DNA of 64,000 bases from contig OX597821.1 of NCBI GenBank assembly GCA_951406725.2, positions 81,344,001 to 81,408,000 on the forward strand, given 5' to 3'. Positions 5,409 to 63,567 of this stretch are shown piece after piece. This DNA is from Octopus vulgaris. Lineage: Eukaryota. Under the pieces are notes generated by a model that was given only the letters and a program-made list of their open reading frames with translations, had not been told where the DNA came from and searched no databases. The translations under genes and the position numbers were made by a program. Within the stretch, counting starts at the first letter, position 1. The number at the start of each line of letters is the position of its first letter.

Positions 5409-5596
5409 TCATTACCATTTAATGTCCACTTTTCATGGCATGGGCTAGACAGTTTGACATGGAACTGGCCAGCTGAAAGCTGTCCAAATTCCAATTGTCT
5501 GTTGTCACATGGTTTCTATGGCTGGATGCCGTTCCTAACACCAACCACTCAAACAGAGTGTGCTGGGTGCTTTTTATATGCCACCAGCATTTATAC

Positions 5597-14600: not shown

Positions 14601-17043
14601 GAGGAAATTATTTATTTCACAACTGGTTAAAAGCAGCAAAAATAATTTTCTTTTTATAATTAAAACAAAGGAATTATACTTCTTTGAGTCTACTTAATAA
14701 ATAAATAAATGCAAAAATAAAATAATTAACAATATTAAAAAGGTATAAAATAATGTGAGCATACCTGGGTTTGTGGTAAGACTATCTGTTAAGTATACTA
14801 CTAGTTTAACAAATTGTTAAATTGAAAATATACTACATTCACGCAAGCTAAATAAGCATATTATAGAATGTTACAAAGAAATACCATACATTGACTTATT
14901 TCTATAATGAACTTTGATGTAATTTCAAGCAATAATGCCAAAAAAATTTTTTTTTTCTTTTCATTAAGATCATATTTTATAGGTAATATATACAGTGACA
15001 GCAATAATAACTAACCAGCAGATGATATATGTATAGTTGATGCACATAAAGAGAACAGCAATCATAACTAAATAAAACTAAATATAATAGTTTGAACCTA
15101 CCTTGCAGAAGGTGAGTCTCTCTGTACAGAACCAAGTTGACTTTGAATTTCTTGGAGTCGACAATGATAATCCCGAGAGCTATAAGAAAAAGAAATAAAT
15201 GTTAGACTATTAATTTTAATATTGGCTTCAAATTTTGGCACAAGGCCAGTAATTTTGGTGGAGGGGGTATGTCAATTACATCAACCCCAGTGATCAACTG
15301 GTACATATTTTACCAATTTTAAGGCAGTGAGCTGGCAGAAACATTAACACACCGGGCAAAATGCCTAGAGGTATTTCGTCTGCCATTACGTTCTGAGTTC
15401 AGATACTGCCGAGGTTGACTTTGCCTTTCATCCTTTCGGGGCTGATTAAATAAGTATCAGTTAATCACTGGGGTCGATGTAATCAACTTAATCCCCTTGT
15501 CTGTCCTTGTTTGTCCCCTCTGTTTTTAGCCCCCTGTGGGCAATAAAGAAATAATTATTTTACCAACCCTGAAAGGATGAAAGGCAAAGCTGACCTCAGT
15601 AGAATTCAATTTCAGAATGTAAAGATGAATGAAATGCTGCTAATGATTCTGCCAGCTCATTACCTTACATATTACCTTACAATGTGTCAGTTATTTCACC
15701 TTTTCATCCTGTGAACATGCTTTGTTCCTTTACAAGAAAATACCTTTAATCATCATCATTTAATGAACTAGAAAAGGTGATGCTGTTTCATAAGTCTAAG
15801 ACAATCGCTGTGAGTTGATGTCTGTGTTTTCCCTGCTGGCATGGGTGGATGGTTTAACAGGAGCTGGCCAGCTTCCCAGGTTTTTGTTTGTCTATTTTAA
15901 CATGATTTCTATGGCTGGATCCCCTTCCTAATGTCAACCACTTTACAGAGTGTACTGGGTACTTTTTACGTGGCACCAGCATAGGTGCTTTTATATGGCA
16001 CTAAATCACAGAATAAAATTATAGCTACAAGTAAAAGAAATCAAGTGCTTGATCAATGAAAACCACAACCTACCATCTTAAAAAAGGAAATATACATCAG
16101 ATAATGGCAGTCTTAGATACACACAAAAAAAACAGACAGTATGTCATGGGTGGATGCACTTGATCATAAATTTGCTTGATTTGGGCTGACTAAGCACAAA
16201 ACAATAACAAAAAAACAATAAATGGTTTTATATCTCAGATATCATTAATAAAGAAGAACAACAATGAAGTGGGTCTTACCTGAGAGCATATGCAATGATG
16301 GAGCTTGGTTCTGTATCGTAGACAATAACAGGAATACGTTCACATTTAGCCAGCAGAGGATGTTCATGAGCTTCACTGAAATTAGAGAGGACAAGAAGAA
16401 ATATCACCAGGATCTCTTTTGAACAGACTCAAAATCCACAAAGAAATGTAACTAGGGATTCTTTGAATAGACTCTACATTATCTATTTGACTGGAATTAG
16501 ACAGTCTAGTCTCTTTCCTTTATCATTAAGTGGTTAGTCCTCCACATTACTTCAAAAGGGGCACAGGGCTAGTTTCAGGTTTCTCTATTGTATATCTTCC
16601 TCCCTGAACAGGACACTGGTCCCTCGCAGGATTACTCATTCTTACCAGCTGAGTGGATTAGAGCAACATGAAATGAAGTGTTTTGCTCAAGAACACGATG
16701 CATCACCTGGCCCAGGAATTGAAACCGCAATCTTATGATCATAAATCCAACACCCTAACCACCAAGCCACACGCCTCTACTTCATCATTAATTAAGTAGT
16801 AATATCTGCAGAGACACATAGTCAATGACACACGTTGTGCTGATTGATGTTATCTAACCTATATTTTGAATAACAATATTTAGTCATTAAGCAGCATAAA
16901 TTCACCACTGCTCTATTTTCACTCTCTGATCATGTAAGTCATCTATTCTACACTCTCAAAGCTATCATGGTATTCTAAACAAGAAAAGGAATAGGGGAAC
17001 TGTTGATATTGAAAAATAAGTAAACCAGTAATGTATAAGGGGA

Positions 17044-25810: not shown

Positions 25811-28800
25811 ATTGAGTCACGGTAATATAACTTGCCTACAGAAACAACATTATGGCTGTTTGAGAATTTGAACTGATGATATTCCAGTTATTAGTGGAGT
25901 TTTTTAGTTTACATATTTGAATCTCCATAATATTTTTATTACAGATTGATTTTATTAGATTTGTAAAATGGGATGAAATAACACTTACCACATCTAAAGA
26001 TGACTGATGTTCCTTCACAGCAGGGCTTTGTGTTTTGGACTTCTCTTTCTTTTGCACCAGAAAATCTTGAATTCTTCAAAGAAACAGTTTAAATTATTAT
26101 TTGTATCGTTAATTATAGCACTATTAATAACGTTAATGTATAGAACTGTGAAATATATTCAAGTTAAGCACTTGGGATATAAACTCCTACTAATGAAGTA
26201 AATATATTATTACAAAATCTAGACAAATCTGAATTCAAAGACAGGAGAGGTTATCAACTCTATGTTTGAACTTAAGGGTTCTAAGCAAGTAAAGAGTTTG
26301 TGAGCTAAATCAGAGAAATATACTCTTGCCAGGAATATATTCATTTCACAAACTGATTTGGATTAAACTTTATCATAAACTCATCATCCAAATGTTTGAG
26401 AGAAAAAATTGCTTTAGAGAGTTTGGGCTAAGACATGGCTCCTGTGCCGGTGGCACATAAAATGCACCGTACAAACATGGTCAATGCAAGTACCACCTGA
26501 CTGGTCCCATGCTGGCGGCACATAAAAAGCACCATTCGAGTGTGAGCATTGCCAGTGCTGCCTGACTGGCTCCCATTCTGCTGGCACGTAAAAGGCACTA
26601 TTTAAGCATGGCTGATGCCAGTACCGCCTGACTGGCCCACATGCCGGTGGCATGTAAAAAGCACCCACTACACTCTCAGAGTGGTTGGCATTAGGAAGGG
26701 AATCTAGCTGTAGAAACCTTGTCAGATCAGATTGGAGCCTGGAGCAGCCTTCTGGCTTGCTAGTCCTCAGTCAAACCGTCTGACCCATGCCAGCAGGGAA
26801 AGCAGACGTAAAACGATGATGATGATGGTGCTGACTGAGCAAGAACAGAGTTCACCTATTGGCCTTGTTGTTTTTGACTTTATGTTATATTTTTCTGCTG
26901 CACAATGTCAGTACTTATGCCATTTTGTAGGGTAGTGAGCTGGTAAAATTGTTATCATGCTGAGTGAAATGCTTAGTGGATATTTCATCAGTCTTTATGT
27001 TCTAAGTTCAAATTCCACTGAGACCGACTTTGTAGTTCATCCTTTCAGGGTCAAAAAAGTAAGTACTAGTTAAACACTGGGGACTATGTAACTGATTTAA
27101 CTATTCCTAGGTATGAGTATAAAAAAAGCTGCACCCCTCTGCCGACCTATGCTGAGTAGGCTCATCAAACCAGTATGATCTCAAGATCAAATACACAGTA
27201 TGCATATCAGACAATGGCTGGGTGGTAAGAATATGTTGAGGCTTTTGTCCTGCAGTGGGCTGAAAATGGGCAATCCAATCCAATCCACTGCCATTTCATA
27301 TACTTAAGAAAGCTGAATGAACTTAAGAAAATTCAAACAAATTCTTACTTTGCATTCCAGTTTACCACTGCTTCTGCAACCATCTGTGTTAAACTTGTCA
27401 GACTGTCTGCGATTTGATTGCTCAAGGAAAAACAAACTTCTGTCAAAGAGAAAACATAAAAAAGATTTTCATGAAATTGTTGTCACTGAAACCTACCCAA
27501 CAGCCACAGCTCTTTAGGTCATCTAAAGCTGCAAAGATGCAAACTAGCTGTCAATGTTGAGTTACTAGTCTTAAAAAGGTTACTCAGATTTTTAATAACT
27601 TTACTCATGCTACAAAACTGTAAAAGCACACACAAAAAAATGGCCTTACCTTCATTTTCAAATTTTCCCTCACTGTTTTTTTTACTCAATGACTCTAATA
27701 ACTGCAGTTTCTGGTGGATTTCATCAGCATGTTTATTCAGGGAAGCCCTCTCACTCTATAATTCATGACAGAAAAACAAAATCAATAATAATAGTGATTT
27801 ACGACAATAGTAAATATTTTTTGGAGGAGGGCGATAATTAATTTATAATTGACTTAATCTTATTCAATAACAGACTGGGCTTATTTTATCAAACTTTGAA
27901 GAAAGAAAAATAAAGTTAACCTTGGTGAAATTTGAACACAGAAAGTAAAGCAATGTAACTACCATATTCAATGGCATATAAGATGCACTTTTTTCTGAAA
28001 AGATACCTCAAAAAAAAAAAAAAAAAAAAAAAATCACCCTGCGTCATGTATGTGAAATTGGATTTAGATTTCATGCTTTAATGAACTCAAAACTTTTTTG
28101 TGTGAGTATGTGTATAATACATGCAATTAATTTTGATTATATTAATGTTGATGTGTTTCTCAGTTGTGGTTGTCTGTGTCTTTTTCTCATTGTTGTAGTA
28201 AAAAAAGTGTATTGTGCACAGGTCTTGATGACGTGGTGTACAGCTGTAGTGAATGGTGGACATTGTCATCATGTGGTGTGCAGTAGACAAAGGATGTATT
28301 TATGATTTAAATTATATTAAATAAATTAGTATTTAATTGTTAATACCAACAACTATAGCCAAGAGGCTTAGAAAATAATTCTTAGTAGATATAATAAAAA
28401 AATATATTGTGCACAAAAACAGACTGAATTTCATCATGGTCATGTGGTACATGGTTAAAGTAACTATGATTTATGTTTTAAATTATAAAAATTTAAAAAA
28501 TTAGTATTTAATTATTAATACTAGAGGTTATAACTAGGTGACTTGCAATATAATTTGTAGGTGATTAAAAAACTTTGCTGATATTTCCGTACTCTCACAA
28601 GTAATAATTAAAAATTAGGAAAAAATGTTTTTAATTACAATTGACCGTATCAAATTATTGTTTAGGCAACCTAATGCCTCCTTTGTTTTTCAACACATTA
28701 ACCACAAACACATGCACGAATAAACTAAAACAAAGTTCCATATACACAAGTAATGTTTTTTTTTAAATACATTAGAATGCACAAGTGCACAAGTATCTGA

Positions 28801-31800
28801 ATTGAATGCTGAGTCTACTAATGATATACCAACCCATTGGGATGGAGTTCCTTTTTCTATCAAGTTCTGACCCTGACGAAATGCTCAATTGACTATATTC
28901 AATATGAATCTTTGATTTAATTTTTCTAATTAGAATTAACTGATTGGACAGGGAAACAATTGTAGGTTCTGTGAGTTTGATATTGTTTGAAATTCGATTT
29001 GTTTCAATAAATTGATGTCTGTATGTCATTTTCACCATTTTCTTCTTTTTCTTTTATACACACACACACACATACATATACACTCACACACACTGACCTT
29101 GCCTGTGCTTGTGCCACATAAAAAGCACTCAGTCCACTCTGCTGTGTGGCTGATGTTAAGAATGGCATCCATCCATAAAAACCCTGCTAAAACAGACACA
29201 GAAGCACTTGTGCAGGTGCCACATAGAAAGCATACAGTACACTGTAAAGTGGTTGGCATTAGGAAGGGCATCAAGCTGTAGAAACCATGCTGAAACACAA
29301 TTGAGGTCTGGTGCAGCACTCTGGCTGACTCCAGTCAAACCATCCAACCCATACCAGCATGGAAAACAGACATTAAATGATGATGATGATAATGTGCTGC
29401 TGAAATTGGGATGCATATGATATGCCTATGTGATATTCATGCCATCAATTCTGTTAATATTCTACTGAGTAAAGCATCGAGCTGGCAGAAACGTTAGCAG
29501 ACCAGGTGAAATGCTCAGCGGTATTACATCTATCTACGTTCTGAATTCAAATTCCGCCAAGGTCGACTTTGCCCTTCATCCTTTCGGGGTCAATAAATTA
29601 AGTACCAGTTGACTGGCCTCCTCCTCAAAATTTTCAGGCCTTGTACCTAGAGTAGAAAAGACTATTCTACTGAGTCTATCACTTATTACTTTAAAAACAC
29701 TTACAAGAATGTTTATAATGCTTGTTTTTATACAGACATAATACTCAGTAATATTCATTTAGAAGATAAGAGAATTGGAAAGCTGACATTCATGGCTTTC
29801 CCACTTAGTAATATAAGGGAAATAGTGCTAAGTGGAATTCAAAAACAGGCTGGGAAGTCACGTCAACATACCAAAACCTCTACAGAAGAATAATAATATT
29901 TTCAAAGAAACTGCAAAAAATTTATTTCAAGTTAGATTTTTTTATAGTAAAATTATACAAAAGTAGAACAGAGTGGAAATATAAACAGAATTCACCTTCT
30001 GGAAAGCCAGATAGTCTGTGAGTATCTTTGACTGGTTCTGTTGTAAGGAGTAATCATTTTGCAGTTTGATAGTTTGCTCCCATATAGCATTGTATAAATC
30101 CATACCTCTGTAGAGAGACAGAAAACTGAATTAAAATAATCGTAAGATTAAAATATACTTTACAAATACAAATCATTCTATATTTGTGTGTGTTCATGTA
30201 TACATATGACCTTATTGTATGAAAACATTAGTGTGTTCAACAAATACTTACGGTGAACAATGAATGAAGCCCCCTCTCTCTCTCCCTATATGTGTGTGTG
30301 TGTGTATATATATATATGTAATACCGGTGAACACTGTTCTCACCATCTACACCGGATACGCCCTACTCCCTCCTCCTCCTCCCCCCTTCTCATATGCTTT
30401 CACTGTGAAAAGACAAGCTGCTAGCGCCACAGCTCATCAACTGCCCACTGATCTTACGCTTCCTCCTGACACTGCCTCAATCTGAATATCTCCTTCCAGT
30501 CCCCTCCGTAATATCCTACGTTTTTTTATTTCTTACGAACCTACACCAACCCTTCCTCCCATCGTTCCTCCTTACCCCAACCTTCCCCACTGGTGCTCCC
30601 CTATATTGACCGCACCCCCTCTACTATCACTACCCCTCTTTTCACTGGTAAAACCTTTCTCAGCTGGACTCCCCCCAACTCAACTCTAGAATATCTGTAT
30701 TTTTCCTCCTTACTACGCTACCTAATTACGTTACTCAGTGACGATAACGAATGTCCACTGCTAACACCAGCTCCTGTCCACGGCGTGGTCAGGTCGGAAG
30801 AGAGATCAAAAGAAAAATGCTACGAAAAGTATCACCACCACAACAACCCTCCTCTTCTCAGGCGCTGAATTCCCCCCTCCCCCCACATCTCCTTCCCAGT
30901 TTTCAGAGTTGGCACTATCAATGTTGGTACATTGACAGGCAAGTCTAGTGAGATTGTAGAGATGCTAGAGAGAAGACAGGTTGATGTATGCTGCATACAA
31001 GAGGTAAGATGGAGAGGTGCTTCGGCTAGGGTCCTCACGGGCAAGGCACTTAGGTACAAACTCTTCTGGCAAGGTAACGTGGAAGGTGTAGGCATTCTCC
31101 TTGCGGAGAAATGGGTGGATGAGGTCATAGAGGTTGTCAGGGTTTGCGATAGAGTGCTTAAGCTCAGGTTGGTCCTACAGAGTGGCACAGCTATGATTAT
31201 CTCCGCCTATGCCCCACAAGCGGGACTACCAAATGATCAGAAGGACAACTTTTATGATAACCTTCTGCAGGCTACTTCAAAGACTAGTAGCAAGGACCTC
31301 ATCTTTGTAGGTGGAGACTTTAATGGGCATGTTGGGCGGGAATCGGGTATCTTCACTGGGGTACATGGTGGCTATGGTATTGGCACCAGAAATGATGAGG
31401 GGAACTAGACTGCTGGAATTCTGTGATGCATGTAACCTTTCAATCTGCAACACTAACTTCAAGAAGCCAGTCTGCCACCTTATAACCTATCAGTCAAGAG
31501 ACTCCGCTAGCCAAATAGACTTCATCCTCACCAGACAGCGGGATGCAGGGTTGCTCTTGAATACAAAGACCCTCCCGGGTGAAGAATGTATCCCTCAGCA
31601 TAGACTAATCATCAGTGACTTTAAGCTTGAGGCCAGAAGGACTCCAAGAAACAAACCAATCCAGAAAAGAAGGATTTGGAGGCTAAAGAACCCTTCACAT
31701 GGTCAGAAATTTAGGGACATACTCATCAAGAAATTTGATGAGAGGGAGGAGGAGCTTCAGACGTCAGACATAGAAGGTAGCTGGGAATTCCTACGGGACA

Positions 31801-34287
31801 GCTTGCTGTGTGCCACAGACCGAGTCTGTGGATGGTGCAAAGTCCCTTCCAGACCTAGAATTACGTGGTGGTGGAATAGTGCAGTAGATAAAGCCATCTG
31901 TAAAAAGAGACGGGCCTGGAAAGCCTGGAAGGATGGGGGCAGCAGGGAACTGTACCAGATAGCCAAAAGGGAGGCTGGGCGGCAGGTATACATAGCCAAA
32001 GACGTAGCAGAAAAGAAGAAGTTTGCCAATGTCCAGCGACGCGAGGATCAAAGAGCTGAAGTATTTCGGATTGCCAGACAGTGTGTCAGAGAAAATAGTG
32101 ATGTTATAGGAGAGAAATGTGTCCGCATGGATGATGGGGCACTTGCATTTACTGCTAGTGAAAAGAAAGAGGCTTGGAGAAGCCATTATGAAAGACTGCT
32201 GAATGAGGAGAATGAATGGGAGGAGGAGAGCCTGCCAAATGTTGACCCAGTAGAGGGACCAGCTACCCGAATAGACAGCTCCCTTGTAGATAAGGCAATT
32301 AAGGATATGAAACCAGGCAAAGCCCCTGGCCTATCAGGAATCACTGCTGAGATGCTTAAAACAGCTGGCTATGTGGGCTATACCATAGTCACCCGCATTG
32401 TAAACCAGGTAGTTCACAATGGAGTCATACCCAATGACTGGTGCAGCAGCACCATAGTCAACTGCTACAAGGGTAAGGGTGATGCTCTAGATAGAAATAA
32501 CTACAGAGGTATCAAACTGTTGGACCAGGTGATGAAGGTCTCAGAGAAGGTCATAACCCATCTCATTAGGGAGAGAATTTGTTTAGATGAAATGCAGTTC
32601 GGTTTTGTACCAGGTAGAAGCACCACTGATGCTATATTCCTGGTCCGACAACTGCAGGAGAAGTACCTAGCTAAAGATAAACCCCTCTACATAGCTTTTG
32701 TAGACTTGGAGAAAGCCTTTGACAGGGTTCCCCGTTCCCTCATCTGGTGGTCGATGCGGAAACTGGAGATTGAAGAATGGCTAATAAGGGCTGTACAGGC
32801 TCTATACAGAGAGGCTGTCAGCAAGGTTAGGATTGGCAATGAATATAGTGAAGAATTCCGGGTAGAAGTAGGTGTGCACCAGGGCTCAGCCCTCAGTCCC
32901 CTTTTATTCATCATAGTCCTTCAGGCAATAACAGAGGAATTCAAAACGGGATGCCCCTGGGAGCTCCTCTATGCCGATGACCTAGCTCTCATAGCAGAAT
33001 CACTACCGGAACTAGAAGAGAAATTTCGGGTGTGGAAGCAAGGGTTGGAATCAAAAGGCCTTAGAATAAATGTAGCAAAGACCAAAGTATTAGTAAGCAG
33101 CAAGAGGTACTCAGCACACACCCCCTCGGGTAGGTGGCCCTGCTCAATCTGTAGGAAAGGTACAGGTAGAAACTCCATAAGATGCACCCAATGTAAGTTA
33201 TGGACACATAAGAGATGCAGCAACATTAAAGGGAAATTAACAGATAAGATAGCTTTCATGTGCGGCAGATGCACAGGGACAATAGACACAACAGACACTC
33301 AGAAAACAGATTCCATCACACTCCAGGGAGAGAAACTAGAAGTAGTTGATAGTTTCCGCTACCTGGGTGACCAAGTTAGTAGCGGAGGTGGATGCACAGA
33401 GTATCACCACTAGAATACGAATAGCCTGGGCAAAGTTCAGAAAGCTCCTACCCCTACTGGCAACAAAAGGTCTCTCCCTCAGAGCGAAAGGTAGATTGTA
33501 TGATGCATGTGTGCGAACTGCCATGCTTCACGGTAATGAAACATGGGCAGTGACTGCAGAGGACATGCGTAGACTTGAAAGAAATGAAGCTAGCATGATC
33601 CGCTGGATGTGTAGTGTCAGTGTGCACGCAAGACAGAGTGTAAGCATCCTAAGAGAAATGCTGGATATAAGAAGCATCAGATGTGGTGTGCAAGAGCGAC
33701 GCTTGCGATGGTATGGTCATGTGCTGCGGATGGATGAAGAGAGATGTGTGAAGAAGTGCCACTCCCAAACAGTTGAAGGTATCAGGGGGAGAGGTAGACC
33801 CAGGAAGACATGGGATGAGGTAGTCAAGCATGACCTCAGAGCATTGGGCCTCACTGAGGCAATGGCAAAAGACCGAGATCTCTGGAGTTTTGCTGTGACT
33901 GCAAAGACCCGGGCTGCTTTCTGCAGCAATTCCACATACCCCCTACCCATTCAAAGTACCCCGGATCCCCAAAGTACCCCAGATCCCCAAAGTACCCCGG
34001 ATCCCCAAAGTACCCCGGACCCAGTTGCCCCAGTGCCGCTGGCACGTTAAAAGCTCGAACCGATCGCGACCAATGCCGGACCCCCCGGCCCCTGTGCAGG
34101 TGGCACGTAAAAGCACCCAATCCACTCACGGAGTGGTTGGCGTTAGGAAGGGCATCCAGCCGTAGAAACTCTGCCAAATCAGACTGGAGCCTGGAGCGGC
34201 CCCTGGCTTTCCAGACCCCGGTCAAACCGTCCAACCCGTGCTAGCGCGGAAAACGGACGTTAAACGATGATGATGATGATGATGATG

Positions 34288-47305: not shown

Positions 47306-50300
47306 ATTTGTCCGTATGCAACAAAGTTAACAAAGCATAATACAACCTGAAAGAACAAAGAATGAAACAACTTGAAGTACTGAAAGAAAAAAAAAATAAA
47401 TGCAACAATATTTTAACCTCTGACTCAGTTGTAAGTAATATAAAATGATAACATTTACCAAGGATTAACACATGGATTAGGAGCATTTGAGGAGTTGCTG
47501 GAGAAACTGCTGAACAAAACAGACAGATGTTGGTGGCTATAAAGATCTAAACAGTCACGCTGAAAACAGAGAATGAAAACAGAAACTTAGATTGGTGTAG
47601 CAAACAAATCAATAAATATTGTATTATAGGGATTAATTGGATAAAGTTAATACTGTCAATGTTCAGAGTTAATGGTTGAGCTAAGGAACAAACATGTTCA
47701 GGTGTGATGGCACTCAAAGAGGAAGGATTAGGGTGGCACTTGCTGTTGGGTCTAGACAGTTAGTAACACATACGAAAGATTGAGGGAAAGGATGAAAAGT
47801 GAAGAGGGAGGCTGGACGCTGTGTGTGTGTGTGTGTGTGTGTATGTGTGTGTGAGAGAGAGAGAGTCTTTGTTTGTTTGTAGTCTCATAGTAAAAATATT
47901 GTGCATTGATTGTAAATAAAATCACCGTTCACACAAAAATGGTATCATTTCTTTGCAACCTTCCATGAAAACATGTTCGGTCATTGAGATATCTGTTCAT
48001 GATTGAAGGACTAGGAGAAGTATTAACTTGAAAACAGATGATAGTTGGTGACGGTAAGAACATCCAGCTGTAGAAAATCTACCACATTGTATTCTACCTG
48101 ACTCATGCGTGTATGGTAACGAGGATGTTACAGGTACAGCACCAATGACACAGCAATCCATAGCTAAATGTATAACCTGTCTGCATTAAACGTACACACT
48201 ATTGTTGCCAGTTCTTAGACATACTGTAGCCAATGGTTTTCATAGCCAGTCATTTCCTTAACTTACTTGTATTCAATATCTCTCCAAGTTATCATTCTCT
48301 ATCAGATCGATTATGCCTTCATTTTGCTCTATTCACTGTAGATCTTTACATTTGCAGCAAATACCTCAGATAGCACCTGCTATACAGAAATTAATAACTG
48401 TAACCCAAAGAAGTAAAGCTGTGGTTGAGCTCACACAAGAACTACCATCTAGTCACCAAAGTGACTTTTACCAAATTACCTACAACTCATATACACAAGG
48501 CTTTTCAGAGCCAAGTGTCCACTAATGGACCCTTCTTAATATCAATCATCACTACTAGTGAGGTTATCATGCAGCCTGCAAGACGAAGATCCTTTTTGAC
48601 TGAGTTGGGATGCAGTAGAGAGGGAGATGATTTTATGCTATGGGATTAGGAGTTAAAATATGAAAGAAGGGGCCAAAATAGAACACACACACACACAATC
48701 ACTATCACCATCATTTAACATCTGTTTCCTATACTGACATAGGTTGAATGGTTTTCTAGGACTGTACCAAGCTCTATTATCTGCTTTGGCATGGTTTCTG
48801 TTGGTGGATGCTCTTTCTAATGCCAGCCATTTTACAGAGTGTACTGGGAGATTTTTTTGCATGGCACCAACACCCAATACACTTTGCAAGACAAAGATCC
48901 CTTGACTGGAAAGACCCCTCGGTATATATAACTCCCCACCAAAACAACAATGTTATATTATTCATATGATTCTCATATTCTCCTCAACATTCATTCCTTT
49001 CACATTATTTATGACATTCCTCTCTTCTGTATGCATCATTTGCATATTTGCTTCATTTGCATATTAGTTTTGTGATGTCCGAATCTAAGCTGCATGATAT
49101 GCACTATTTATAATGGTTAGAGTAACATGTCACAGCTACATTGATTTATCAACTAGAAGAGAATCCAAATTGAACCATTGTTAAAAGTATTCCTGAAGTT
49201 TTATTTATCATGGACAGAATCTACAAACAACAACACAGTTTTCATCCATTTTTTTCAGCATCACATATCACATTTCTCACACATCATTCATAAAGTCTGG
49301 CTTATATATTATATCTCCAACATTTATCTACAGTGCTACCACTGTGATTAAATTAGTCTGGTAGCCTACCTTCAATACTAATAGTATCACCAAGGTAATA
49401 TAACTTATTTACTATTTCCCATGAAACATCTGCTTACTAGACAGCCTTCAGCAGATCAATAAAATTCATACCATGAAATATCTTTTATAAACAATTTATA
49501 AAATCTATAAACAAATCTATAAAATCCATAACTCACCTTCTGATCATAATAGAATGATACATAGTTAATATCATTTTTTATTTCTCCATTGCTTGTCTTT
49601 TTAGCCACCTCCTTGCATTCATCATGATAGCAGCTCCCAGACTGGGTTGTTTTAATACGTCCACCTCGAGCACGAAAATCAGACAGAATGTCCTACAAAT
49701 AAAATAGATGAATTTCTTTCTTTTAAATTTGACTCAATGAAACAAGATCTTGTTGGCTCAAATTAGAAAAACTGGAAATTTCATTCATGCATAACCCAGA
49801 TAGAAATATAGATGATGATGATGATTATGAAGATGGTGGTAGTAATGGCGATGATGATGATGATGACAATGATAACAGCAATGACAATAATGGTGGTAGT
49901 GTCAGCAGTGGTGGTGGTGTCATAATGGTGAGATGGTAATGAAAAAAACAATAATTAGGTTTGTGATGCAGATGAAGAGCTAAATATGATGAAAATTGGC
50001 CTCGATTTTCAAAGAACACCACATTCTTCTACACAACCTACGCCACTTGGTAGCTGGGGTTCATGTCATGAGAAGTTAGAAGAATCAAAATAATGAACTT
50101 ATCATAATCATCTTTTAATGTCCATTTTCCATGCTGGCATATCTTGGACAGTTTGACAGGGGCTGTTGAGCTAAAGGACTTCATTAAGATCCAATGTCTG
50201 ATTTGGCATAGTATCTATGACTGGATGCCTTTCCTAATGCCAACCATTTCACAGAGTATGCTTTTTACATGGCATCAGCACAGCTAAGGTCATTAAGTTA

Positions 50301-53300
50301 CTCACAAGACATGACCCCTTAACTGAGAGAGTGGGGGTGTAATATTGGCTTTATGCCAAGTTATAAGAAGTTAAAGTATGATAGAGGGACAGGCGTATTA
50401 CAGTAGAAGAAATACATGGCTATGTCGTGTAATCTACACGTGTTGACTGAGCCAGTGAGAGCCCCTATGTGATTGCTTGATCTGCTACAAATTGCAAACA
50501 AATCTTTTACAGATAACATCCTACCTTTCTTCAAGAAAACAGATGCAATGGATATAGAGGCAGAAAATGGTCATGTCTAGAATAATTTTGATCATAGTTC
50601 TTCCTGGTCAGGCTTGATATAAGATTAAGCAACAACTACACATCTTGATAAATAAAAGTGTTTGTGGTTAGTGAGAGCACAAGTCAAGAGGAACCATGGT
50701 TTGATCACATACTGCCTTAAATCTATTTTTCTATTCTTACATAAATTCTATCTCTACAGTCTACAATATAAGTACAGCTCAGTCACCAAGCAAATATACT
50801 AGATTACACATCTTCAATGATTTGAAAAGAAATATTGCCCCAGTTTTCACATTTGAAATTATTTTGAAAGAACATGGCAAAAATACTGATTGCAGAAATT
50901 TTTTCTAAGTAAATTACTGTGATACTTTGTTGAAATTAAGCTGCTTTAATTCAACACACTTCAGTGAACATTCTAGTGCATTTACTTGATGATTCTCTCA
51001 TCACTAGCTCAACAAGTATAGTGAAGTCAATGATTTTCTGTTGAGGTCATAATAAGACTGGAACATGTTCAAAGTTCTCTCTCTTGATGAAAATAATTAA
51101 AATAAAATTAGTCAATGACTAACAGTGATTTTTTTCTTTTTCACATAACTTTTAACTTAATTATATAGAGAGATATAGTGGCAGTAGTATCCATTAGATA
51201 CAATAGCTTGTAAAATACATAATATATTGTAATCAGTCTTCCCTTGGAATTGAATACTGTTTTAAGATACTTGTCTGCACTTACATAATACCTCTCTCTT
51301 TTCCTCTCAATACACACGCACACAGTACTTTTCTCTCAGGTACAGAAATATTTATTTGCTTATCATAATAATGTCAAATACCTACCTGTACAGATGGGTC
51401 TTTCACTGGTTTTTCAAGTTTCCACATGATAAAAGGATGTGCCTCCGTAATTTCTACATTTTTCTTGTTACTGATACGTGATACAACATCGGTATCAAAA
51501 TATTTTGGTCGATTGTCAATGTTCTTTTCACTTAAAGCTGGAGAGAAGTACATTTCATCAGGGAAATACTTCCGCAAAGTTGACTTCAAGCCATTAGTAG
51601 TCTCTAAATATGGTGGATCAATTTTTATGTAAGGTGAGACAGAAAGAACTAAATCTTCCAGTGCTTTTCGAATTTTCTGCTGTTGAGCGACCTTCTGCTC
51701 TTGAAGTGCAACAGAACTGTGAAATATGGAGTCATCCTTCGTTGTGAGATAGTTGTGTAAAGGATCAGAAAAATCAGTGAGTTCTTCTATGCCAGGTTGT
51801 TTTCGACTGTTGCTCATGACATCTTTGCATAGTTTATTGTCACTGCTTTGACTGACTTCTGTTGAAATGTCTAGTGACGGATCATCTTCTTTACTAGATT
51901 CAATGTCCTTCTCTGAAGGTTCACTATCAACTACGTCTGTATCACCAACTTCTTCAACAAGCTGAAGAGACAAAGTCATTGAACTGGCTGTTTTAAAAGC
52001 ATCTCTCCTACATTGGTTATTAAATACATGTCCCCTGTTATCTATCACATCTTTCTGTTCACTATTTACATCTTGTTGAGAGTCTCTCAATTCAGAATTA
52101 ACATCTGATATGTCAGTGTCTAAATTAAGACCTATTTCATCCCCAGAGGGTGGAGGAAGGCCAAATTCGTCCATAATAAATGAAACTTCAAGTTGAGAAT
52201 GATATGCTGCATAAGTCATAAACTGCATTATTTTTTTCACCTGAAATTAAAATAGAAAATGTAAGTAAATAGGTGCAGGCATGGTTATAGGTGTAGGTAT
52301 AGCTATAGGTGAAGTCATGGGTTTGTGCTAAGGTTTACATCTCAACCACATGCTTTCTGATTCAGTCCCACTGCATGGCACCTTGGGTAAGTGCATTTCA
52401 CTACAGCCTCGGGCTGACCAAAACCTTGTGAGTGGATTTAGTCGATGGAAACCCTAGTGGTTAGGGTGCTGCACTCATGCATGGTTGTTAGGTCGTGGTT
52501 TCAATTTCTGGTCCGAGTGTTGCATTGTGTTCTGGAGCAAAACACTTCATCTCACTTTGCTCACTGTGACACCTGACATATGGTACACAGTGCACCTGTC
52601 CAGGCAGCATTTATTTGATGGAAGGAGGGAGCTTATGTACAACACTTACATTTGATCACTAGAAACAAATCATTTGTGCTGGTCATTCAGCAGAAGCTAA
52701 ACACTCACATATCGTCTTCAATGGGAAAGTCCATTGTATGCATGAGCACAACTTTTTCCTTCTCTCTGTCTAATTTTCATATGATGATGATGATGATGTG
52801 TGTGTGTGCATCAGTGAAAGATATATACAGTGGCAAGAAACTCCTGCTAAATTGATGCATGGAACAAAAATAACTTGTGGTATTTACTGCACCATGATTG
52901 CAAACATTTTCCTTCTACCCTTACCATAATAGACAAACAGTGAATTTGTGATTGGTTCATTAGAAACCAATAGGCAACAGAAAGTGTACAATGTAAACTA
53001 AAAAGAAATATAATGAAAATAAACATAACGATTTTCAGATCAATACAATCATCTAATCAAGACAATCATATAATACATTGTATTAGAAAAAGGATAGACA
53101 AGGATTCAAGCAGACACCATCATGGCTGTCTAATTAAGAAGCTTGCTTTGCAACTAAGGGGTTTCTGGTTCAGTCTCACTGCACAACACATTTGCCAAAT
53201 GTCTTCTACTTTTTTTCCCCCACCTTTCTTTATTCTGGTTATTTGGCTTTCAGGAATGCCAAAAGTAACCAGAAAATATTTAGTTAAAAATATATACTCT

Positions 53301-59300: not shown

Positions 59301-60899
59301 ATGCAGATCACTGATCAGGTTCTTATATTTGTACACCAAAAGAGATTTTCAATGAGCTGAAAGAAGTTTATGGTGATGATGCACCACCATACAACGTAGT
59401 CTAACACTGGCGTTGCTTGTTCAAATGTGGTTGGACATCGGTGGAGACTGCTCCTATTCCTGGACAACCAAATTCTGCTATTGATGACAACACCATCCAT
59501 AAAGTGGAAGCTGCCATTTTGGAGGATTGACACATAACTATTTGGCAACTAGCCCAAGAAATGAAGATAAGTGTAGGGTCCATAGAAAAAAATCATTCAT
59601 GACCATTTGCACATGCAGAAGTTGTCTGCATGATGGATTCCCAAGATGCTCACACCTTTTCAGAAGCAGGAATGAGTTAATTGCTCCTAGGCTCTTTTGG
59701 CAATGTGCCAAGAAAATGAGGAGAACTTTTACAGCAGACTTTATCACACAGGATGAAACATGGGGCCATCACTATGATCCTGAGACTAAAGTCCAGTCAA
59801 AGCAATGTTAAGCTTGGTTAGTAATAAATCAAAAACTATGACGTGCATATGTATGTATGTATGGATGGATGGATGGATGGATGCATGTATGTATCATAGC
59901 TTTTTTTTATGAAATAAGTGTAGAACTTCATAATTTATTGTTTGATGGTATTGTTTTGGTGGCACGTAAAAAGCACCATCCGTCCGTGGCCGTTTTCCAG
60001 CTCCGTCTGGCACCTGTGCGGGTGGCACGTAAAAAGCACCCACTACACTCACGGAGTGGCTGGCGTTAGGAAGGGCATCCAGCCGTAGAAACACTACCAG
60101 ATCAGACTGGGCCTGATGCAGCCTTCTGGCTTCACAGACCCCAGTTGAACCGTCCAACCCATGCTAGCATGGAAAGCAGACGCTAAATGATGATGATGAT
60201 GATGAATATGAATTCTGTACTGATCAAATTTGCTGAAACAGCCTCCAGAACTAATATTCTAATTATTTTTGTTTGCTTGTTTCTTTCTTTCTTCTTTTAT
60301 TTCTATTTTTTAAATGTATATGAGAGGGGAATTGAAATTTGAAGCTCACCTTTCGAAAAGATGCCTCAGTAAGATAACTTTTACAAATAATTAAATGATC
60401 AGATGACAACAGATGTAGAAATGAACATTTTGAACTACTACGGGTATTGTTATTGTTGATGTTCTTTCAAATGTGGTGGTGAGTGTGTGCACATATATAT
60501 CTTTATCTTTTACTTCTTTCAGTCATTAGATTACAGCCATGCTGGGGCACCACCTTGAAGAATTTTTAGGTGAATGTATCCCCCCACCCATCCAGTGCTT
60601 ACTTTTTATAAGCCTGGTACTTATTCTATCAGTCTCTTTTGCTAAACCACTAAGTTATAGGGATGTAAACACACCAGCACTGGTTGTCAAGCAGTGGTGG
60701 GGGACAAACATAGATACACATATATATATGCATATATATGATTGGCTTCTTTCAGTTTCTGTCTACCAAATCCACTCACAAGGCTTTGATCAGCCTGAGG
60801 CTATAGTAGAAGACTATAGTCCAAGGTGCCTCACATTGGGGCTGAACCCAGAACCATGTGATTGGGAAACAACCTTCTTACCACACAGTCACATCTGCA

Positions 60900-60938
<39 letters not shown>

Positions 60939-63567
60939 TCATCATCATCATCATCATCATCATCGTTTAACGTCCGCTTTCCATGCTAGCATGGGTTGGG
61001 CGGTTCAACTGGGGTCTGGGGAGCCCGAAGGCTGCACCAGGCCAGTCAGATCTGGCAGTGTTTCTACAGCTGGATGCCCTTCCTAACGCCAACCACTCCG
61101 AGAGTGTAGTGGGTGTTATTATGTGCCACCGACACAGGTGCCAGATGAGGCTGGCGAACGGCCACGCTCGGATGGTGTTTTTATGTGCCACCGACACTGG
61201 TGCCAGACGAGGCTGGCAGACGGCCACGCTCGGATGGTGTTTTTATGTGCCACCGACACAGGTGCCAGACTGGGAATTTTAATCTGGTTTAACACTTTTA
61301 TTACCATACTTCTACTGAAATATACTGCCTTTGCTTCAATTAAACCTGAAAATGATGAAGAATTTAAAATAATTTTGTCATTATTAAGCTGGTGCTTGAA
61401 ACAGATTAACATGAAATTTTGATGGAAATTTTAAGCTGGTTCACTGTAAAACAGAAAGTTTGCACCATCTCAGACAGGTTGGTATCAAAAGGATTAAAAC
61501 TACGACACCCTTGCTGGAAGTAGCACAAACACACAGACAGCATAGGCAGCATCAATGCTTTAACATCCAATCACCAGAAATAGTTTGGATAGGCCCATTA
61601 CATAGCATGTCACAATTCATGTTGGTCATTTATTAAATCTTCTGCATAGTCCACCATCCTGACGTTTGAATTCTTCATACTCTTCTTTGACTTCTTCAAT
61701 TTATTTCACTTCAATGAGTAGCCACCACCTACAGTACACAACACATTTTCACCCAGTGTTCAGTTTCCATTCACATCACAGGTTGATGTTAGCAAGGTTG
61801 TTTCTCCTGCACACTTCAGCCACCCGCTCAGTTCACTCTCAATCTCTGACAAAGGTAATCATTAAGAATCAAACCAAACTTCATGAGGATTAACATGGTG
61901 CTTAAAAGTGTAATTTGTTCTGCATTGGACAGCCAAAGCATGGTCCGCTCTAAACAAACCAGACGTCTAGAAATCAACCCTGTCAGACAACCTTAAGAGG
62001 AATCTTTTTTCTGTACATCAGTAGAGTCAGTCATTTTATGTGGAGCAACAGCCTGAATGTTTATCAAAAAACTGGAATCCAAGCTAGATGGAACTTACAC
62101 CGGAATGGTAAGAGCAGTCTTAGACGTGTCTTGGAGATTTGCCTGTTACCACCACTATGACAGAAAGGTGCTTGCACTTTGTAGGACATTGCTGGCATGC
62201 TAAACAAGAGCTGGCAAGTGACCTACTGCTATGGATGCCAAAGCATGGCCATACTTGAGCAGGTCATGTGAACATAGTGCATGTAGATCAACTCATCAGA
62301 GACACCAGATACTTGCCTGATGACTTCCCTCAACTAATGCAGAACCAAGATGGATGGTGTGTTAGAATTTAAAATGTCTGAGCAAGCTCAACCAGATGAT
62401 GATAATCATGATGAACATGACACATTCATAGAGAATAAAATTATAAAAATTACCTGAAGTATTAAGGGTTCCAGAGAAGAAAATTTGTTCTCAACTCGTT
62501 GATAATCAATGGCACCTTTCAACAAGAGAATTTTTGGCTTTGAGACAGTTGTCTGCATTTTCTTGTGAGCAACATTTTTGCTACAAACGACCCCATGGAT
62601 GACAGCAGTCTGATTTCTCTGACCTCCAGAAATCTAAGAAGATAATATTTGGAATTATAAACTAGAAAAACTATGCATATGCATGGATATGTATGTGTGT
62701 GTGCTTTTACAAACTAATATATAGCAACCAATTGGTAAATTGCAAACACTTTTTTGATCTGAGTCTGAGCAACATCTTAATCCCCAAAATAAAAAAAGTG
62801 AAAAAAAAATTTTCCCAAAACCTTCAAAAGATGGTCAAGACCAGAATAATAATTAAAACTTGCATCATGATAGAAACCTTGTAGCCAATTCAAACACAAT
62901 CACTTACAACCATTACATGATATGAAGACAAAGAGACAACTACACACACACACACACACACACATTATGCATATTTACATACATATATGTTTGGCGATGT
63001 AAACAAGAAAAACAGATTTCGAAACATGAGTATATATGTTTTTTTTTACTAATAATCAGAAGTTACAGAGGGGCTCAAGGGTTGAGAGTTTCATACTTGA
63101 AACCCTTGGCACTTGAATTACTCTGTAACTTTGGCCAACTATTAATAAGAAGAAAAACATATATACGAACATACATTTCTACATACATATATATCATCAT
63201 CATATTTCTATCTATGAGATCCACTCACAAGGCTTTGCTCAGTCAGGAGCTATAGTAAAAGACTAGAGCCAAAACTGGTTAGGAAGCAACACCTGCATCT
63301 ATATGTAAGTTATTTTACATGAACACTTACTAGTTGTTACTATACACTGAACATCATGAAATTTATAAGCTAAGTAAAATAACTACCTTTTTTATTTGTA
63401 CATATTTCCGTATATCCATGTCATCTCCTTCATTACGTACATCAGGACTTACAAACTGGCTGACTTTGTGGGCTGTTTGCATGATGGTGCCTTCCCAGGA
63501 GAGTGGTAAGCCTTCTTGATTGAGCAACTGGCGCACCAAGTTTGACAGATGTTCCTTATGAACTTTT
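395..63567 (-). CDS. PIKFYVE: PIKfyve/Fab1 1-phosphatidylinositol-3-phosphate 5-kinase, partial multi-exon gene (26 coding exons in window; continues beyond both ends)
   Basis: Spliced translation gives PIKfyve motifs: [133 protein letters not shown]. All introns are GT-AG and phases match. Confidence 0.97.
1007..1093 (-). CDS. PIKFYVE: PIKfyve exon: (D)[28 protein letters not shown](Q)
   Basis: cag| ... |gtaagt, 87 nt; resembles the vertebrate NPHVELQ motif. Confidence 0.9.
3412..3483 (-). CDS. Candidate acidic cassette exon of PIKfyve: (V)[23 protein letters not shown]
   Basis: aag| ... |gtgaga, 72 nt, phase 1-1, open frame that fits between exons 6813 and 1093; weak polypyrimidine tract. 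Confidence 0.35.
4288..5330 (-). mobile_element. Degenerate mariner (Tc1/mariner) transposon
   Basis: HHDNARPH and [16 protein letters not shown] motifs; mariner-type TIR at about 5305-5330; 3' end lost. Confidence 0.9.
6458..6529 (-). pseudogene. tRNA-Glu(CTC) pseudogene
   Basis: TCCCAAATGATCTAGTCGTTAGGATTCTGCACTCTCACCGCAGCAGCCAAGGTTCAATTCTCTGTTTGGAAA aligns to eukaryotic tRNA-Glu-CTC; one mismatch each in acceptor, anticodon and T stems; TTTT 6 nt downstream. Confidence 0.8.
6813..6956 (-). CDS. PIKFYVE: PIKfyve exon: (G)[21 protein letters not shown]...VESGM
   Basis: cag| ... |gtatgg, 144 nt, phase 1-1. Confidence 0.83.
8050..9050 (-). mobile_element. Highly degenerate Penelope-like RT fragment
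   Basis: Remnants [34 protein letters not shown] resemble PLE RT motifs (LPSYIKDT, MDVKSLYT, LAELVL..N.F.F). Confidence 0.65.
9071..9320 (+). mobile_element. tRNA-derived SINE family C (TGGCTTAGTGG head; GAGCAAAACACTT...ATGGACTGGCATCCCATCCAG body)
   Basis: Copies at 12212-12345(+), 13547-13760(+), 16560-16780(-), 52455-52560(+), 56927-57180(+). Confidence 0.8.
10560..11750 (-). mobile_element. Penelope-like element fragment (RT thumb plus GIY-YIG)
   Basis: [60 protein letters not shown] motifs. Confidence 0.85.
12638..12857 (+). mobile_element. tRNA-derived SINE family B (GAGCTGGCAGAA...GAGTTCAAAT...CTTTCATCCTTTCGGGG)
   Basis: Pol III A/B-box-like motifs; copies at 15322-15553(+), 22946-23110(+), 26930-27100(+), 29474-29665(+), 15222-15665(-, interrupted). 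Confidence 0.85.
13279..13373 (-). CDS. PIKFYVE: PIKfyve exon (linker): [17 protein letters not shown]...NPEQ
   Basis: cag| ... |gtaact, 95 nt, phase 2-1 bridges its neighbours. Confidence 0.75.
15102..15179 (-). CDS. PIKFYVE: PIKfyve exon: [25 protein letters not shown]
   Basis: tag| ... |gtaggt, 78 nt, phase 2-2. Confidence 0.88.
16280..16375 (-). CDS. PIKFYVE: PIKfyve exon: [31 protein letters not shown](S)
   Basis: cag| ... |gtaaga, 96 nt; [11 protein letters not shown] is a Fab1 hallmark. Confidence 0.95.
17713..17824 (-). CDS. PIKFYVE: PIKfyve exon: [22 protein letters not shown]...LRMP(F)
   Basis: tag| ... |gtgagt, 112 nt, phase 1-2. Confidence 0.85.
18096..18231. repeat. 56-bp-arm inverted repeat (hairpin)
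   Basis: 18096-18151 is complementary to 18176-18231 with few mismatches. Confidence 0.9.
19257..19412 (-). CDS. PIKFYVE: PIKfyve exon (linker): [19 protein letters not shown]...; two in-frame donors (19290 or 19257)
   Basis: tag| acceptor; donors |gtaaac (123 nt) or |gtgagt (156 nt), both phase 1. Confidence 0.72.
19743..19958. mobile_element. pogo/Tigger-like MITE
   Basis: TA|CTGTAATCCCTCG ... GAGGGATTAGTG|TA terminal inverted repeats. Confidence 0.65.
20933..21150 (-). mobile_element. LINE (CR1-like) 3' end with (ATT)n tail
   Basis: [12 protein letters not shown] terminus followed by 3' UTR and an AAT-rich tail. Confidence 0.5.
22665..22748 (-). CDS. PIKFYVE: PIKfyve exon (linker): [16 protein letters not shown]...DRTS
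   Basis: cag| ... |gtatag, 84 nt, phase 1-1. Confidence 0.75.
23145..23307 (-). CDS. PIKFYVE: PIKfyve exon (low-complexity linker): [14 protein letters not shown]...TTISA
   Basis: cag| ... |gtacgt, 163 nt, phase 0-1. Confidence 0.8.
24296..24408 (+). repeat. Perfect 35-bp tandem repeat x3.2
   Basis: AGCACTCTTCTAGTCCAAGAGACAAAAACTCTATC x3 identical. Confidence 0.95.
24850..25470 (-). mobile_element. tRNA-derived SINE family A (internal (TA/CA)n, AAAAGAGT tail)
   Basis: Same family at 1-236(+), 6019-6400(-), 17080-17240(-), 21890-22060(-), 35183-35360(-), 43897-44160(+), 44954-45130(+), 52275-52452(+), 60500-60900(-). Confidence 0.85.
25090..25277 (-). mobile_element. PLE 3'-end fragment with decayed hammerhead, inserted in the (TA)n of a SINE
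   Basis: Minus strand 25190-25226: gttt CCGACAA agagc-tcc-gctc AAAA cgt t aaac, matching a minimal type-I hammerhead with core mutations. Confidence 0.6.
25731..25806 (+). repeat. (GT)n(AG)n compound microsatellite
   Basis: Seen directly; one of many (TA)n, (CA)n and (GAT)n tracts in the window. Confidence 0.95.
25989..26073 (-). CDS. PIKFYVE: PIKfyve exon: [17 protein letters not shown]...SLDV
   Basis: aag| ... |gtaagt, 85 nt, phase 2-0. Confidence 0.82.
26436..26828 (+). mobile_element. 5'-truncated RTE 3' UTR copy with 4 tandem GGTGGCACGTAAAAAGCACC-type motifs
   Basis: Homologous to 34030-34287, ends in (GAT)n. Confidence 0.85.
27349..27439 (-). CDS. PIKFYVE: PIKfyve exon: (E)[29 protein letters not shown](K)
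   Basis: cag| ... |gtaaga, 91 nt, phase 1-2; conserved WN motif. Confidence 0.87.
27650..27755 (-). CDS. PIKFYVE: PIKfyve exon: [20 protein letters not shown]...FENE
   Basis: tag| ... |gtaagg, 106 nt, phase 0-1. Confidence 0.85.
29996..30107 (-). CDS. PIKFYVE: PIKfyve exon: [16 protein letters not shown]...LAFQK
   Basis: cag| ... |gtgaat, 112 nt, phase 2-0. Confidence 0.87.
30751..34050 (+). pseudogene. RTE ORF (APE-RT-PHD) split by about 3 frameshifts
   Basis: ORFs 30751-30948, 30932-31408, 31311-33413 and 33346-34050 join via indels in a C-run (about 30870), a G-run (about 31400) and a GA repeat (about 33398). Confidence 0.85.
33952..34022 (+). repeat. 18-bp tandem repeat x4 (CAAAGTACCCCGGATCCC) at the RTE ORF end
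   Basis: Seen directly; translates as QSTPDP x4. Confidence 0.9.
34388..35166. mobile_element. PLE-type pseudo-LTR unit (direct about 180-bp repeats plus inverted segment)
   Basis: 34443-34624 repeats at 34985-35166; perfect 36-bp inverted repeat 34391-34426/34462-34497; flanked by (TA)n. Confidence 0.6.
35554..35667 (-). CDS. PIKFYVE: PIKfyve exon: [16 protein letters not shown]...LSH(K)
   Basis: cag| ... |gtaagt, 114 nt, phase 2-2. Confidence 0.9.
35737..35915. mobile_element. Mariner-derived MITE
   Basis: TIRs ctgaaaaattcctggcttt / aaagccaggaatttttcag, TA flanks. Confidence 0.75.
35951..36129 (-). CDS. PIKFYVE: PIKfyve exon: [24 protein letters not shown]...VAYF(K)
   Basis: cag| ... 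|gtgagt, 179 nt. Confidence 0.95.
37200..37371 (-). CDS. PIKFYVE: PIKfyve exon: [23 protein letters not shown]...WSRCRKCKQ
   Basis: tag| ... |gtaatg, 172 nt. Confidence 0.95.
37935..38590 (+). repeat. AT-rich minisatellite of 12-13-bp AAAATTTT subunits (resumes at 41802-41910)
   Basis: e.g. CGAAAATTTTCAC CGAAAATTTTACC CAAAAATTTTT. Confidence 0.95.
38598..41800 (+). repeat. 22-bp satellite array, about 145 units, consensus GCCGACAGAGATCAAAGAGGGT
   Basis: Seen directly; higher-order block repeats with a 528-bp period. Confidence 0.97.
42716..43153 (-). pseudogene. Orphan intronless 145-codon reading frame with one internal TGA
   Basis: ORFs 42932-43153 and 42716-42922 are in the same frame, separated by TGA ACT TGC AAA; CpG-rich. 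Confidence 0.4.
43640..43895 (-). mobile_element. Helitron/HINE-like subterminal segment with internal duplication
   Basis: Minus strand AACCGATTTCATTCAAATTT motif of the kind seen in non-autonomous Helitron 5' regions; about 50-bp segment at 43698 repeated at 43847. Confidence 0.4.
44749..44820 (-). CDS. PIKFYVE: PIKfyve exon: [23 protein letters not shown](R)
   Basis: tag| ... |gtgagt, 72 nt, phase 2-2. Confidence 0.95.
45703..47268 (+). mobile_element. Degenerate Tc1-like transposon
   Basis: [51 protein letters not shown]; TA|CACTAGTATCCAAAAG left TIR and decayed right TIR. Confidence 0.9.
47459..47559 (-). CDS. PIKFYVE: PIKfyve exon: [33 protein letters not shown](W)
   Basis: cag| ... 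|gtaaat, 101 nt, phase 0-2. Confidence 0.94.
49537..49692 (-). CDS. PIKFYVE: PIKfyve exon: [14 protein letters not shown]...YYDQK
   Basis: tag| ... |gtgagt, 156 nt. Confidence 0.93.
51386..52240 (-). CDS. PIKFYVE: PIKfyve large exon: [26 protein letters not shown]...KDPSVQ
   Basis: cag| ... |gtaggt, 855 nt; contained in ORF 51374-52240; LSVSPY motif. Confidence 0.95.
53353..53447 (-). CDS. PIKFYVE: PIKfyve exon: (G)[31 protein letters not shown]
   Basis: aag| ... |gtaagt, 95 nt, phase 1-0; matches the KTLMFFEGC..LGCT..LRG motif. Confidence 0.92.
53578..55065 (-). mobile_element. Penelope-like element: GIY-YIG remnant between about 310-bp inverted pseudo-LTRs
   Basis: 53578-53893 is the inverted copy of 54752-55065; the internal minus strand reads [41 protein letters not shown]. 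Confidence 0.8.
55692..55818 (-). CDS. PIKFYVE: PIKfyve exon: [21 protein letters not shown]...FQLPN
   Basis: cag| ... |gtaaat, 127 nt, phase 0-1. Confidence 0.93.
57493..57712. mobile_element. piggyBac-like MITE
   Basis: TTAA|CCCTTTCATT ... AATGAAAGGG|TTAA; decayed relatives at about 7190-7360, 18640-18870, 23490-23700, 61270-61497. Confidence 0.8.
57900..58600 (-). mobile_element. Degenerate CR1/L2-group LINE C-terminal fragment
   Basis: [37 protein letters not shown] resembles the LYKAQVRP.MEY..W..LD.IQ motif. Confidence 0.55.
58845..58985 (-). CDS. PIKFYVE: PIKfyve exon: [26 protein letters not shown]...FNTKT
   Basis: tag| ... |gtaagt, 141 nt. Confidence 0.95.
59119..59810 (+). mobile_element. 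Degenerate mariner transposon, 5' half
   Basis: Left TIR after TA; remnants [34 protein letters not shown]. Confidence 0.85.
59958..60205 (+). mobile_element. 5'-truncated RTE 3' UTR copy
   Basis: Homologous to 34090-34287; (GAT)n tail. Confidence 0.85.
60936..61270 (-). mobile_element. 5'-truncated RTE 3' UTR copy with about 61-bp internal tandem units
   Basis: Reverse complement of the RTE 3' end; (CAT)n on plus strand. Older copies at about 4075-4270(-), 5407-5590(-), 15815-16000(-), 29100-29390(+), 48705-48870(-), 50105-50280(-). Confidence 0.85.
61860..62415 (+). mobile_element. Degenerate RTE-like LINE 3' fragment
   Basis: [32 protein letters not shown] remnants, GAT-rich tail. Confidence 0.55.
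62454..62633 (-). CDS. PIKFYVE: PIKfyve exon: [26 protein letters not shown]...SLEPLILQ
   Basis: tag| ... |gtaatt, 180 nt, phase 0-0. Confidence 0.95.
63387..63567 (-). CDS. PIKFYVE: PIKfyve exon: [15 protein letters not shown]...[13 protein letters not shown]
   Basis: cag| acceptor, |gtagtt donor, 181 nt, start of CCT-like domain. Confidence 0.93.

Follow-up and report, generated by a model that had tools for sequence, protein, structure and literature searches.

Short SINE-like copies in a 64-kb window of Octopus vulgaris tend loosely to start near a tandem pseudoknot unit and are probably bipartite LINE derivatives

Results

Gene context and the near-full-length element

The window, by which we mean the entire 64-kb stretch of DNA analyzed here, is AT-rich animal DNA. 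An exon-like 290-aa frame at 51374-52246(-) matches phosphatidylinositol 3-phosphate 5-kinase over its N-terminal 32 residues (E=8e-6), and the repeats described below probably lie within introns of the gene encoding this kinase. Between two blocks of a different, AT-rich satellite (12/24/37 nt), about 146 copies of a 22-nt satellite occupy 38598-41800, and the whole tract extends over 37930-41907.

The largest transposable element is a near-full-length non-LTR element (Table 1) with the Pfam domains Exo_endo_phos, RVT_1 and PHD, a coding frame split into three pieces that overlap, a flanking 20-nt microsatellite duplication and 356 nt between its ORF-end motif and its tail. We take it to be an RTE element, following the label given in the original prediction; its homologs carry no clade name, and the RTE-clade features present are the endonuclease with reverse transcriptase (RT) and the microsatellite tail. 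Its 3' UTR consists of a cassette of pseudoknot units, a core and a tail. The core and the knot are absent from the 5' region of this same element, and the cassette was likely acquired by capture. Just upstream of the first knot, at 33952-34019, stand four 18-nt repeats, each an A-run followed by a C-run, which resemble the start motif of the L032/L042 relatives discussed below; the resemblance is weak and may be due to chance.

Table 1. Coordinates of the near-full-length element, its 3' cassette and the short copies in the window
Feature	Position	Strand	Composition and start
Near-full-length non-LTR element	30320..34287	+	endonuclease, RT, PHD finger; (GAT)n end
Cassette as 3' UTR of the full-length element	34027..34287	+	two knot units, core 34137, tail 34227
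Short copy	59958..60205	+	partial knot unit (start +5), spacer, full unit, core, 3' tail, (GAT)n
Short copy	60945..61270	-	three knot units, core at 61092, tail; start -11
Short copy	26436..26830	+	four units, 66-nt period; start -8
Older short copy	4064..4270	-	abutting 26-nt units; start +9
Older short copy	15815..16003	-	abutting 25-nt units; start +4 to +6
Older short copy	5404..5590	-	one unit; start +1; microsatellite on both sides
Decayed copy	7860..8029	-	start about +3; 3' end approximate
Older copy	29093..29394	+	start about -12; 105-nt duplication, giving knot and core twice
Older copy, counter-example	48704..48914	-	runs ~40 nt upstream of S1
Older copy, counter-example	50099..50330	-	runs ~49 nt upstream of S1
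Counter-example copy	14083..14210	-	begins at core, downstream of knot

A family of short copies without coding sequence

An nhmmer census of the 64-kb window yielded 11 short copies of the pseudoknot family. The five copies cited in the original prediction were a selection, to which the census added six (5590-, 8027-, 29095, 48874-, 50281- and 14210-). Left out of the final count were coordinates 2466, 36763 and 58607, which have a tail only and are of uncertain family, and 21765, 45233 and 48044, where the core follows another upstream part and the knot is lacking. In the copy at 59958..60205, S1 of the full unit lies at 60016 and the hairpin core at 60060, and the 5' end could extend by microhomology to about 59952-59954. 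The copy at 60945..61270(-) has a unit period of 62 nt, with S1 at 61259, 61197 and 61135, and its 3' end falls inside the (TA)n stretch that terminates another repeat. Copies 48874(-) and 50281(-), which run furthest upstream, have 28 nt of additional upstream sequence in common (0/500 shuffles as high, p=0.002).

When 25 of the 120 homologous proteins were searched with tblastn, no ORF sequence was detected in the short copies, the only matches in the window lying at 30803-33897. Nor did the copies carry a tRNA, 5S or 7SL head: the sole Rfam match in the window is an unattached tRNA at 6458-6529, which bears out the proposal that this is a SINE-like family without a Pol III head. A tree of 10 window copies contained no strongly supported fork.

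Insertions near 30320, 5590, 2466 and 60945 lie in or against TA/TG/CA microsatellites, which suggests a target preference for such sequence. The same core, without a knot, also occurs in composite repeats at 45030-45300(+), 21670-21960(-) and probably 48044-48088(+), in which it is preceded by a CORE-like motif (observed at 45042); the repeat at 21670-21960 has the tail as well. Because the core is found in two or three composite repeats and in relatives of the family, core plus tail behaves like an exchangeable cassette.

The pseudoknot unit

The repeated unit is a predicted 25-nt H-type pseudoknot with a stem 1 (S1) of 3-4 bp, a loop of 1-2 nt, a stem 2 of 4-5 bp and an A-rich last loop of 7-8 nt, the stems totaling 8-9 bp. 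The motif on which the original prediction was built is real, as 16 matches with three or fewer mismatches occur in the window where 0.07 were expected. Of the cells in an alignment of 18 units (11 from the window and 7 from other animals), 87.5% are paired and 12 carry double changes, and the covariation score exceeds 500/500 shuffles and all slid controls. This covariation supports the modeled two-stem fold but falls short of proof, since the sequences are related and the structure was derived from the same sequences. At columns 5, 11 and 22 of alignment A3, a switch between G and C where the stems meet shifts one pair from one stem to the other, giving C-G at 5-11 in 7 units and C-G at 11-22 in 4 units.

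Single-strand folding, which cannot model knots, gave no significant z-score in 7/7 sequences. The 25-nt knot matched no Rfam family, no ribozyme appeared among the 17 Rfam matches in 59900-61400 at E up to 10, and pattern scans and a protein scan of a viral collection returned no match.

Position of the 5' ends

Each 5' end was expressed as an offset from the first S1 base of the 5'-most unit. The ten knot-bearing copies gave offsets of -12, -11, -8, +1, +3, +5, +4 to +6, +9, -40 and -49, placing 8/10 in a start zone from -12 to +9 of S1, a cluster that spans 22 nt. The five ends originally cited lie as described (26436 at -8, 61270(-) at -11, 59958 at +5, 4270(-) at +9 and 16000(-) at +4 to +6). 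The wider claim, that copies start at or just upstream of a knot, holds for these eight copies but fails for the two at -40 and -49 and for 14210(-), which starts downstream of it.

How strongly this clustering departs from chance depends on the zone and on the region considered. The zone of the original prediction, inside a knot or at most 12 nt upstream of one, makes up 32% of the length copied and holds 8/11 ends (p=0.007); restricted to the array region, it holds 8/10 ends against 62% (p=0.20). An earlier count that included 2466 and 36763 gave 7/12 ends (p=0.02), and 7/9 in the array alone (p=0.25). The window from -12 to +9, chosen post hoc, holds 8/10 ends against 35% (p=0.0045), and 5/5 copies with a known upstream unit, a post hoc and pre-selected set, end within it against 36% (p=0.006). 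In the subfamily with a 25-26-nt period, to which 4270 and 16000 belong, the units abut, so that any end counts as lying inside a motif.

No clean target-site duplication (TSD) was seen at the five cited ends, and none was convincing at 17 related loci. The full-length element also stops matching the short copies ~6 nt before S1, at 34027, and some of the ends may therefore be edges of homology. We aligned reads and contigs to 60964-61300 at 85% likeness, without taking contig depth as copy number. The largest clusters of loose contig ends at the knot, at 61097 (459 contigs) and 61115 (584), continue as family sequence and not as unique flanks; among the positions listed, none with loose ends lay near an S1 start, where smaller clusters are possible. 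Contig depth is zero beyond 61276, which indicates that the flank of the 61270(-) copy is not shared family sequence. Two DNA runs with a common species label, X22 and X23, yielded 26 and 35 raw reads, well below what the repeat density would predict for the ~1.9 billion letters in each. Together, these data show a loose tendency, in small numbers, of the ends to cluster near the 5' half of the pseudoknot.

The module in related retrotransposons

Scanning with the 22-nt core, which is the sequence that follows the last knot, covered 120 of about 130 metagenome loci and 12 genome loci. At 15/132 loci (about 9 families by our grouping) the core precedes, in the same orientation, an endonuclease/RT ORF or the N-terminal part of one. 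The order seen in the window, ORF end followed by core and tail, occurred in 0/132 loci, many of which have only 300 nt of flank.

L012, L111 and the L005 group have the same pseudoknot 5' of the core. In L012 the knot is 42 nt ahead of the core, with the endonuclease at +279; an upstream-only alignment as good as that of L012 arose in 5/1000 shuffles, and one as good as the downstream-only alignment of L121 in 0/1000. A structure descriptor applied to the 70 nt before the core recovered a knot in 7/100 distinct loci versus 5/1290 shuffles, six of the seven being of the window type. Among the 120 homologous proteins, two (P0003 and P0017) have an N-terminal read-through that translates the module, with scores of 57 and 47 where controls reach 38-42 (0/300 shuffles each).

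The tail is likewise found at the other end of coding relatives. In L121 it lies directly 3' of the ORF and aligns to the tail of the short copies (0/300 shuffles), and it is translated at the C-terminus of 12/120 homologs, in 11 of them 11-15 residues past a D/N-R-x-x-W motif, a much shorter distance than the 356 nt in the element of the window. Core plus tail within 113 nt was present at 15/132 loci, and the L005 group, with one and the same knot, includes both forms: core leading to an ORF start (L005, L065, L097, L109) and core leading to the tail (L064, L091). As judged from these alignments, the short copies combine a 5' part like a LINE 5' UTR with a 3' part like the extreme LINE tail, and they hold no coding remnant.

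Closer inspection of 5' ends in these relatives gives a sharper picture than in the window. In the L005 group, which comes from one metagenome assembly of another organism and is a set biased by exact-pattern retrieval and assembly, 8/11 informative knot-bearing copies share a start ~124 nt upstream of S1; the others start at -77, -30 and +21 (L097, inside stem 2), and 0/11 start within the 12 nt before S1. This informative set excludes L022, where the knot is deleted, and L073, which ends with its contig. L032 and L093, which bear an ORF, have the same start motif as the L042 group, where the short copies begin at about -31 to -36 (seven) or at the core (three).

Rfam was run on 20/132 loci. 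In L062, a twister-P1 match (L062:1518-1596 (-), E=2.9e-7, 45.8 bits against a gathering score of 67.2, which it does not reach) sits immediately 5' of the core, and RT sequence is present further 3'. Conserved motifs stand at or near the 5' ends of the L005 group (about -170..-105 from the core) and the L032/L042 group (-39..0), and at -50..0 in L020, L045, L126 and L001. None of these had an Rfam hit among the loci scanned, and an HDV-like label considered for the motif of the last four loci was dropped for the same reason; the motifs are candidates for new 5'-end-forming RNAs. Several records (L121-L126, L129-L132) are titled as bacterial or archaeal MAGs yet carry this animal-type retrotransposon (ORF pieces in L121), likely as eukaryotic contamination.

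Weighing the explanations for the short copies

The original prediction regarded the copies as 3' UTRs cut down at the knots, either where RT stalls or where XRN1 halts. That view of their build is doubtful, given that knot and hairpin form a 5'-UTR module in relatives and that the copies hold no ORF sequence. The match to the 5' UTR of related retrotransposons instead suggests head-plus-tail mini-elements, and we hold, with modest confidence, that the short copies are bipartite non-autonomous elements whose RNA begins near the tandem head unit. The bipartite build alone would account for a SINE-like family that has no Pol III head.

The proposed course of events would run as follows. Internal deletion of an ancestral element would have joined the 5' module to the tail, and the knot unit would then have been amplified in tandem, with periods of 25-26, 62 and 66 nt. 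Each unit would be a likely start point, most likely as an internal Pol II start and possibly through cleavage, while small losses of 5' bases at insertion, together with homology edges, would blur the ends. The lineage of the full-length element would have taken up the cassette as a new 3' end. Several observations weigh against this reading. The two youngest copies are 85-86% identical to the cassette that the full-length element carries 3' of its ORF, so that sister LINEs could be the source. Two window copies run on to -40 and -49, start points in relatives vary by no more than a few nucleotides where the window ends span 22 nt, and the sample is small (n=11) with the best end window chosen post hoc. 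In the L005 group, moreover, a sharply defined 5' end lies ~124 nt before the knot, which is thus not the start there.

A rather unlikely alternative invokes no special mechanism, the copies being smooth 5' truncations of elements with the cassette as 3' UTR and the clustering a product of motif density and homology edges. The array-only test of the original zone (p=0.20), the apparent "start" of the full-length element itself at about -6 against the short copies, the continuation of both loose-end clusters as family sequence and the want of TSDs all sit well with it. It is opposed by the copies with a known upstream unit, although their agreement is post hoc and pre-selected, by the fact that no copy reaches the ORF and by the unshared flank past 61276, and it leaves the 5'-UTR place of the module elsewhere unexplained.

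Pausing of RT at a structure, be it the knot or the spacer hairpin, with the cDNA joined there, is unlikely. Coming from the tail, RT would encounter stem 2 before stem 1, and stalled ends are expected near +20..+34; 0/11 window ends lie there, and 16/20 units were copied through, so the stalling variant of the original prediction is not supported. The knot was also passed in 10/11 knot-bearing L005-group copies, leaving L097, which ends at +21, as the one such copy that fits, and the stems are short at 8-9 bp in total. In the window, if the copies that end at +1 (5590) and +3 (8027) came from an abutting array, those ends would fall on the 3' edge of the knot before them.

We give a similarly small probability to the knot unit being an RNA 5'-end-forming element, that is, a new small self-processing or exonuclease-blocking fold. 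On this same doubtful reading, the unit would fill the slot that a twister ribozyme occupies in relatives.

The XRN1 route, in which the exonuclease halts at 3'-UTR knots and leaves a ladder of stable 3' fragments to be retrotransposed, is quite improbable: the tandem knots and the ladder of 1-4 unit copies do resemble tandem xrRNAs, the knot covaries (among related sequences), three copies start 8-12 nt before S1 and a function in 5' protection would be in keeping with where relatives have the module, near their 5' ends, but only 1/10 ends, taking genomic copies as a proxy for RNA ends, falls in -8..-3, 5/8 clustered ends lie inside the knot, no knot-bearing L005-group copy (0/11) starts in the 12 nt before S1, and the unit is modeled as a 25-nt two-stem knot without an Rfam match, where a ring around the 5' end is described as defining for xrRNAs (PMC7668246). 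The 22-nt spread and the ends inside the knot make a poor fit to XRN1 halting, which in mosquito-borne flavivirus xrRNAs is precise to 1-2 nt and occurs 5-6 nt before P1 (PMC5760640).

Discussion

The bipartite reading places the short copies beside several known systems. Bipartite non-autonomous RTE elements usually keep the 5' end of the parent, and Pol II is presumed to transcribe them (PMC5786205). Like Bov-A, RTESINE1/2, WALLSI3 and RTE-N2_Lch from that work, the window copies join a 5'-UTR piece to a 3' tail with a microsatellite end and have neither an ORF nor a Pol III head; unlike those elements, their head is a tandem pseudoknot unit with ragged starts, and the window also contains an autonomous-type element with the whole cassette as its 3' UTR. 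In mouse L1, clustered ends in the tandem 5' monomers reflect start sites (PMC6454616). The variable number of tandem 5' units and the ends at unit phase recall these L1Md arrays, whereas the window units are 25-66 nt long and have a predicted RNA fold, and a role in starting transcription would hold for them by analogy.

Ribozymes are known from the same position in RTE elements, with twister variants leading Perere-3 (PMC8501958) and HDV-like ribozymes leading others (PMC6765202). The twister-P1 match in L062, which takes up the place just 5' of this core, parallels these descriptions, while the knot unit of the window matches no ribozyme family. Flavivirus and polerovirus xrRNAs, whose defining trait is a ring around the 5' end, share with the window tandem 3'-UTR pseudoknots and a ladder of 3'-coterminal products (PMC5760640, PMC7668246); in contrast to them, the window ends lie at no fixed distance, half of them inside the fold, and the fold is much smaller and predicted only.

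Many SINE families are unclassified (PMC13282606), and the pseudoknot family may already be present in other repeat libraries. The 22-nt core was not found in the supplement of that paper, as represented by one short file without the consensus library, nor in the supplement of PMC5786205. Judged by titles, searches of mostly open-access literature brought up neither the module nor a natural xrRNA in a retrotransposon.

Collectively, these observations move a headless short-repeat family, present in 11 copies in 64 kb, from the category of truncation debris to that of bipartite LINE derivatives that probably arose by a known route. Two twists are added to this route, namely the tandem pseudoknot head and a LINE 3' UTR that has apparently captured a cassette of 5' module plus tail. 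The family thereby presents a small covarying RNA fold at a place where relatives carry a ribozyme. Were the less probable reading of the knot as a 5'-end-forming element true, the fold, captured in the 3' UTR and multiplied there, would cause the LINE RNA to shed a ladder of tail-bearing short RNAs, and the LINE would continually make its own SINE-like family without Pol III. Should the fold indeed make or protect the 5' ends of RNAs, cells would have in it a counterpart to the formation of subgenomic RNAs by viruses.
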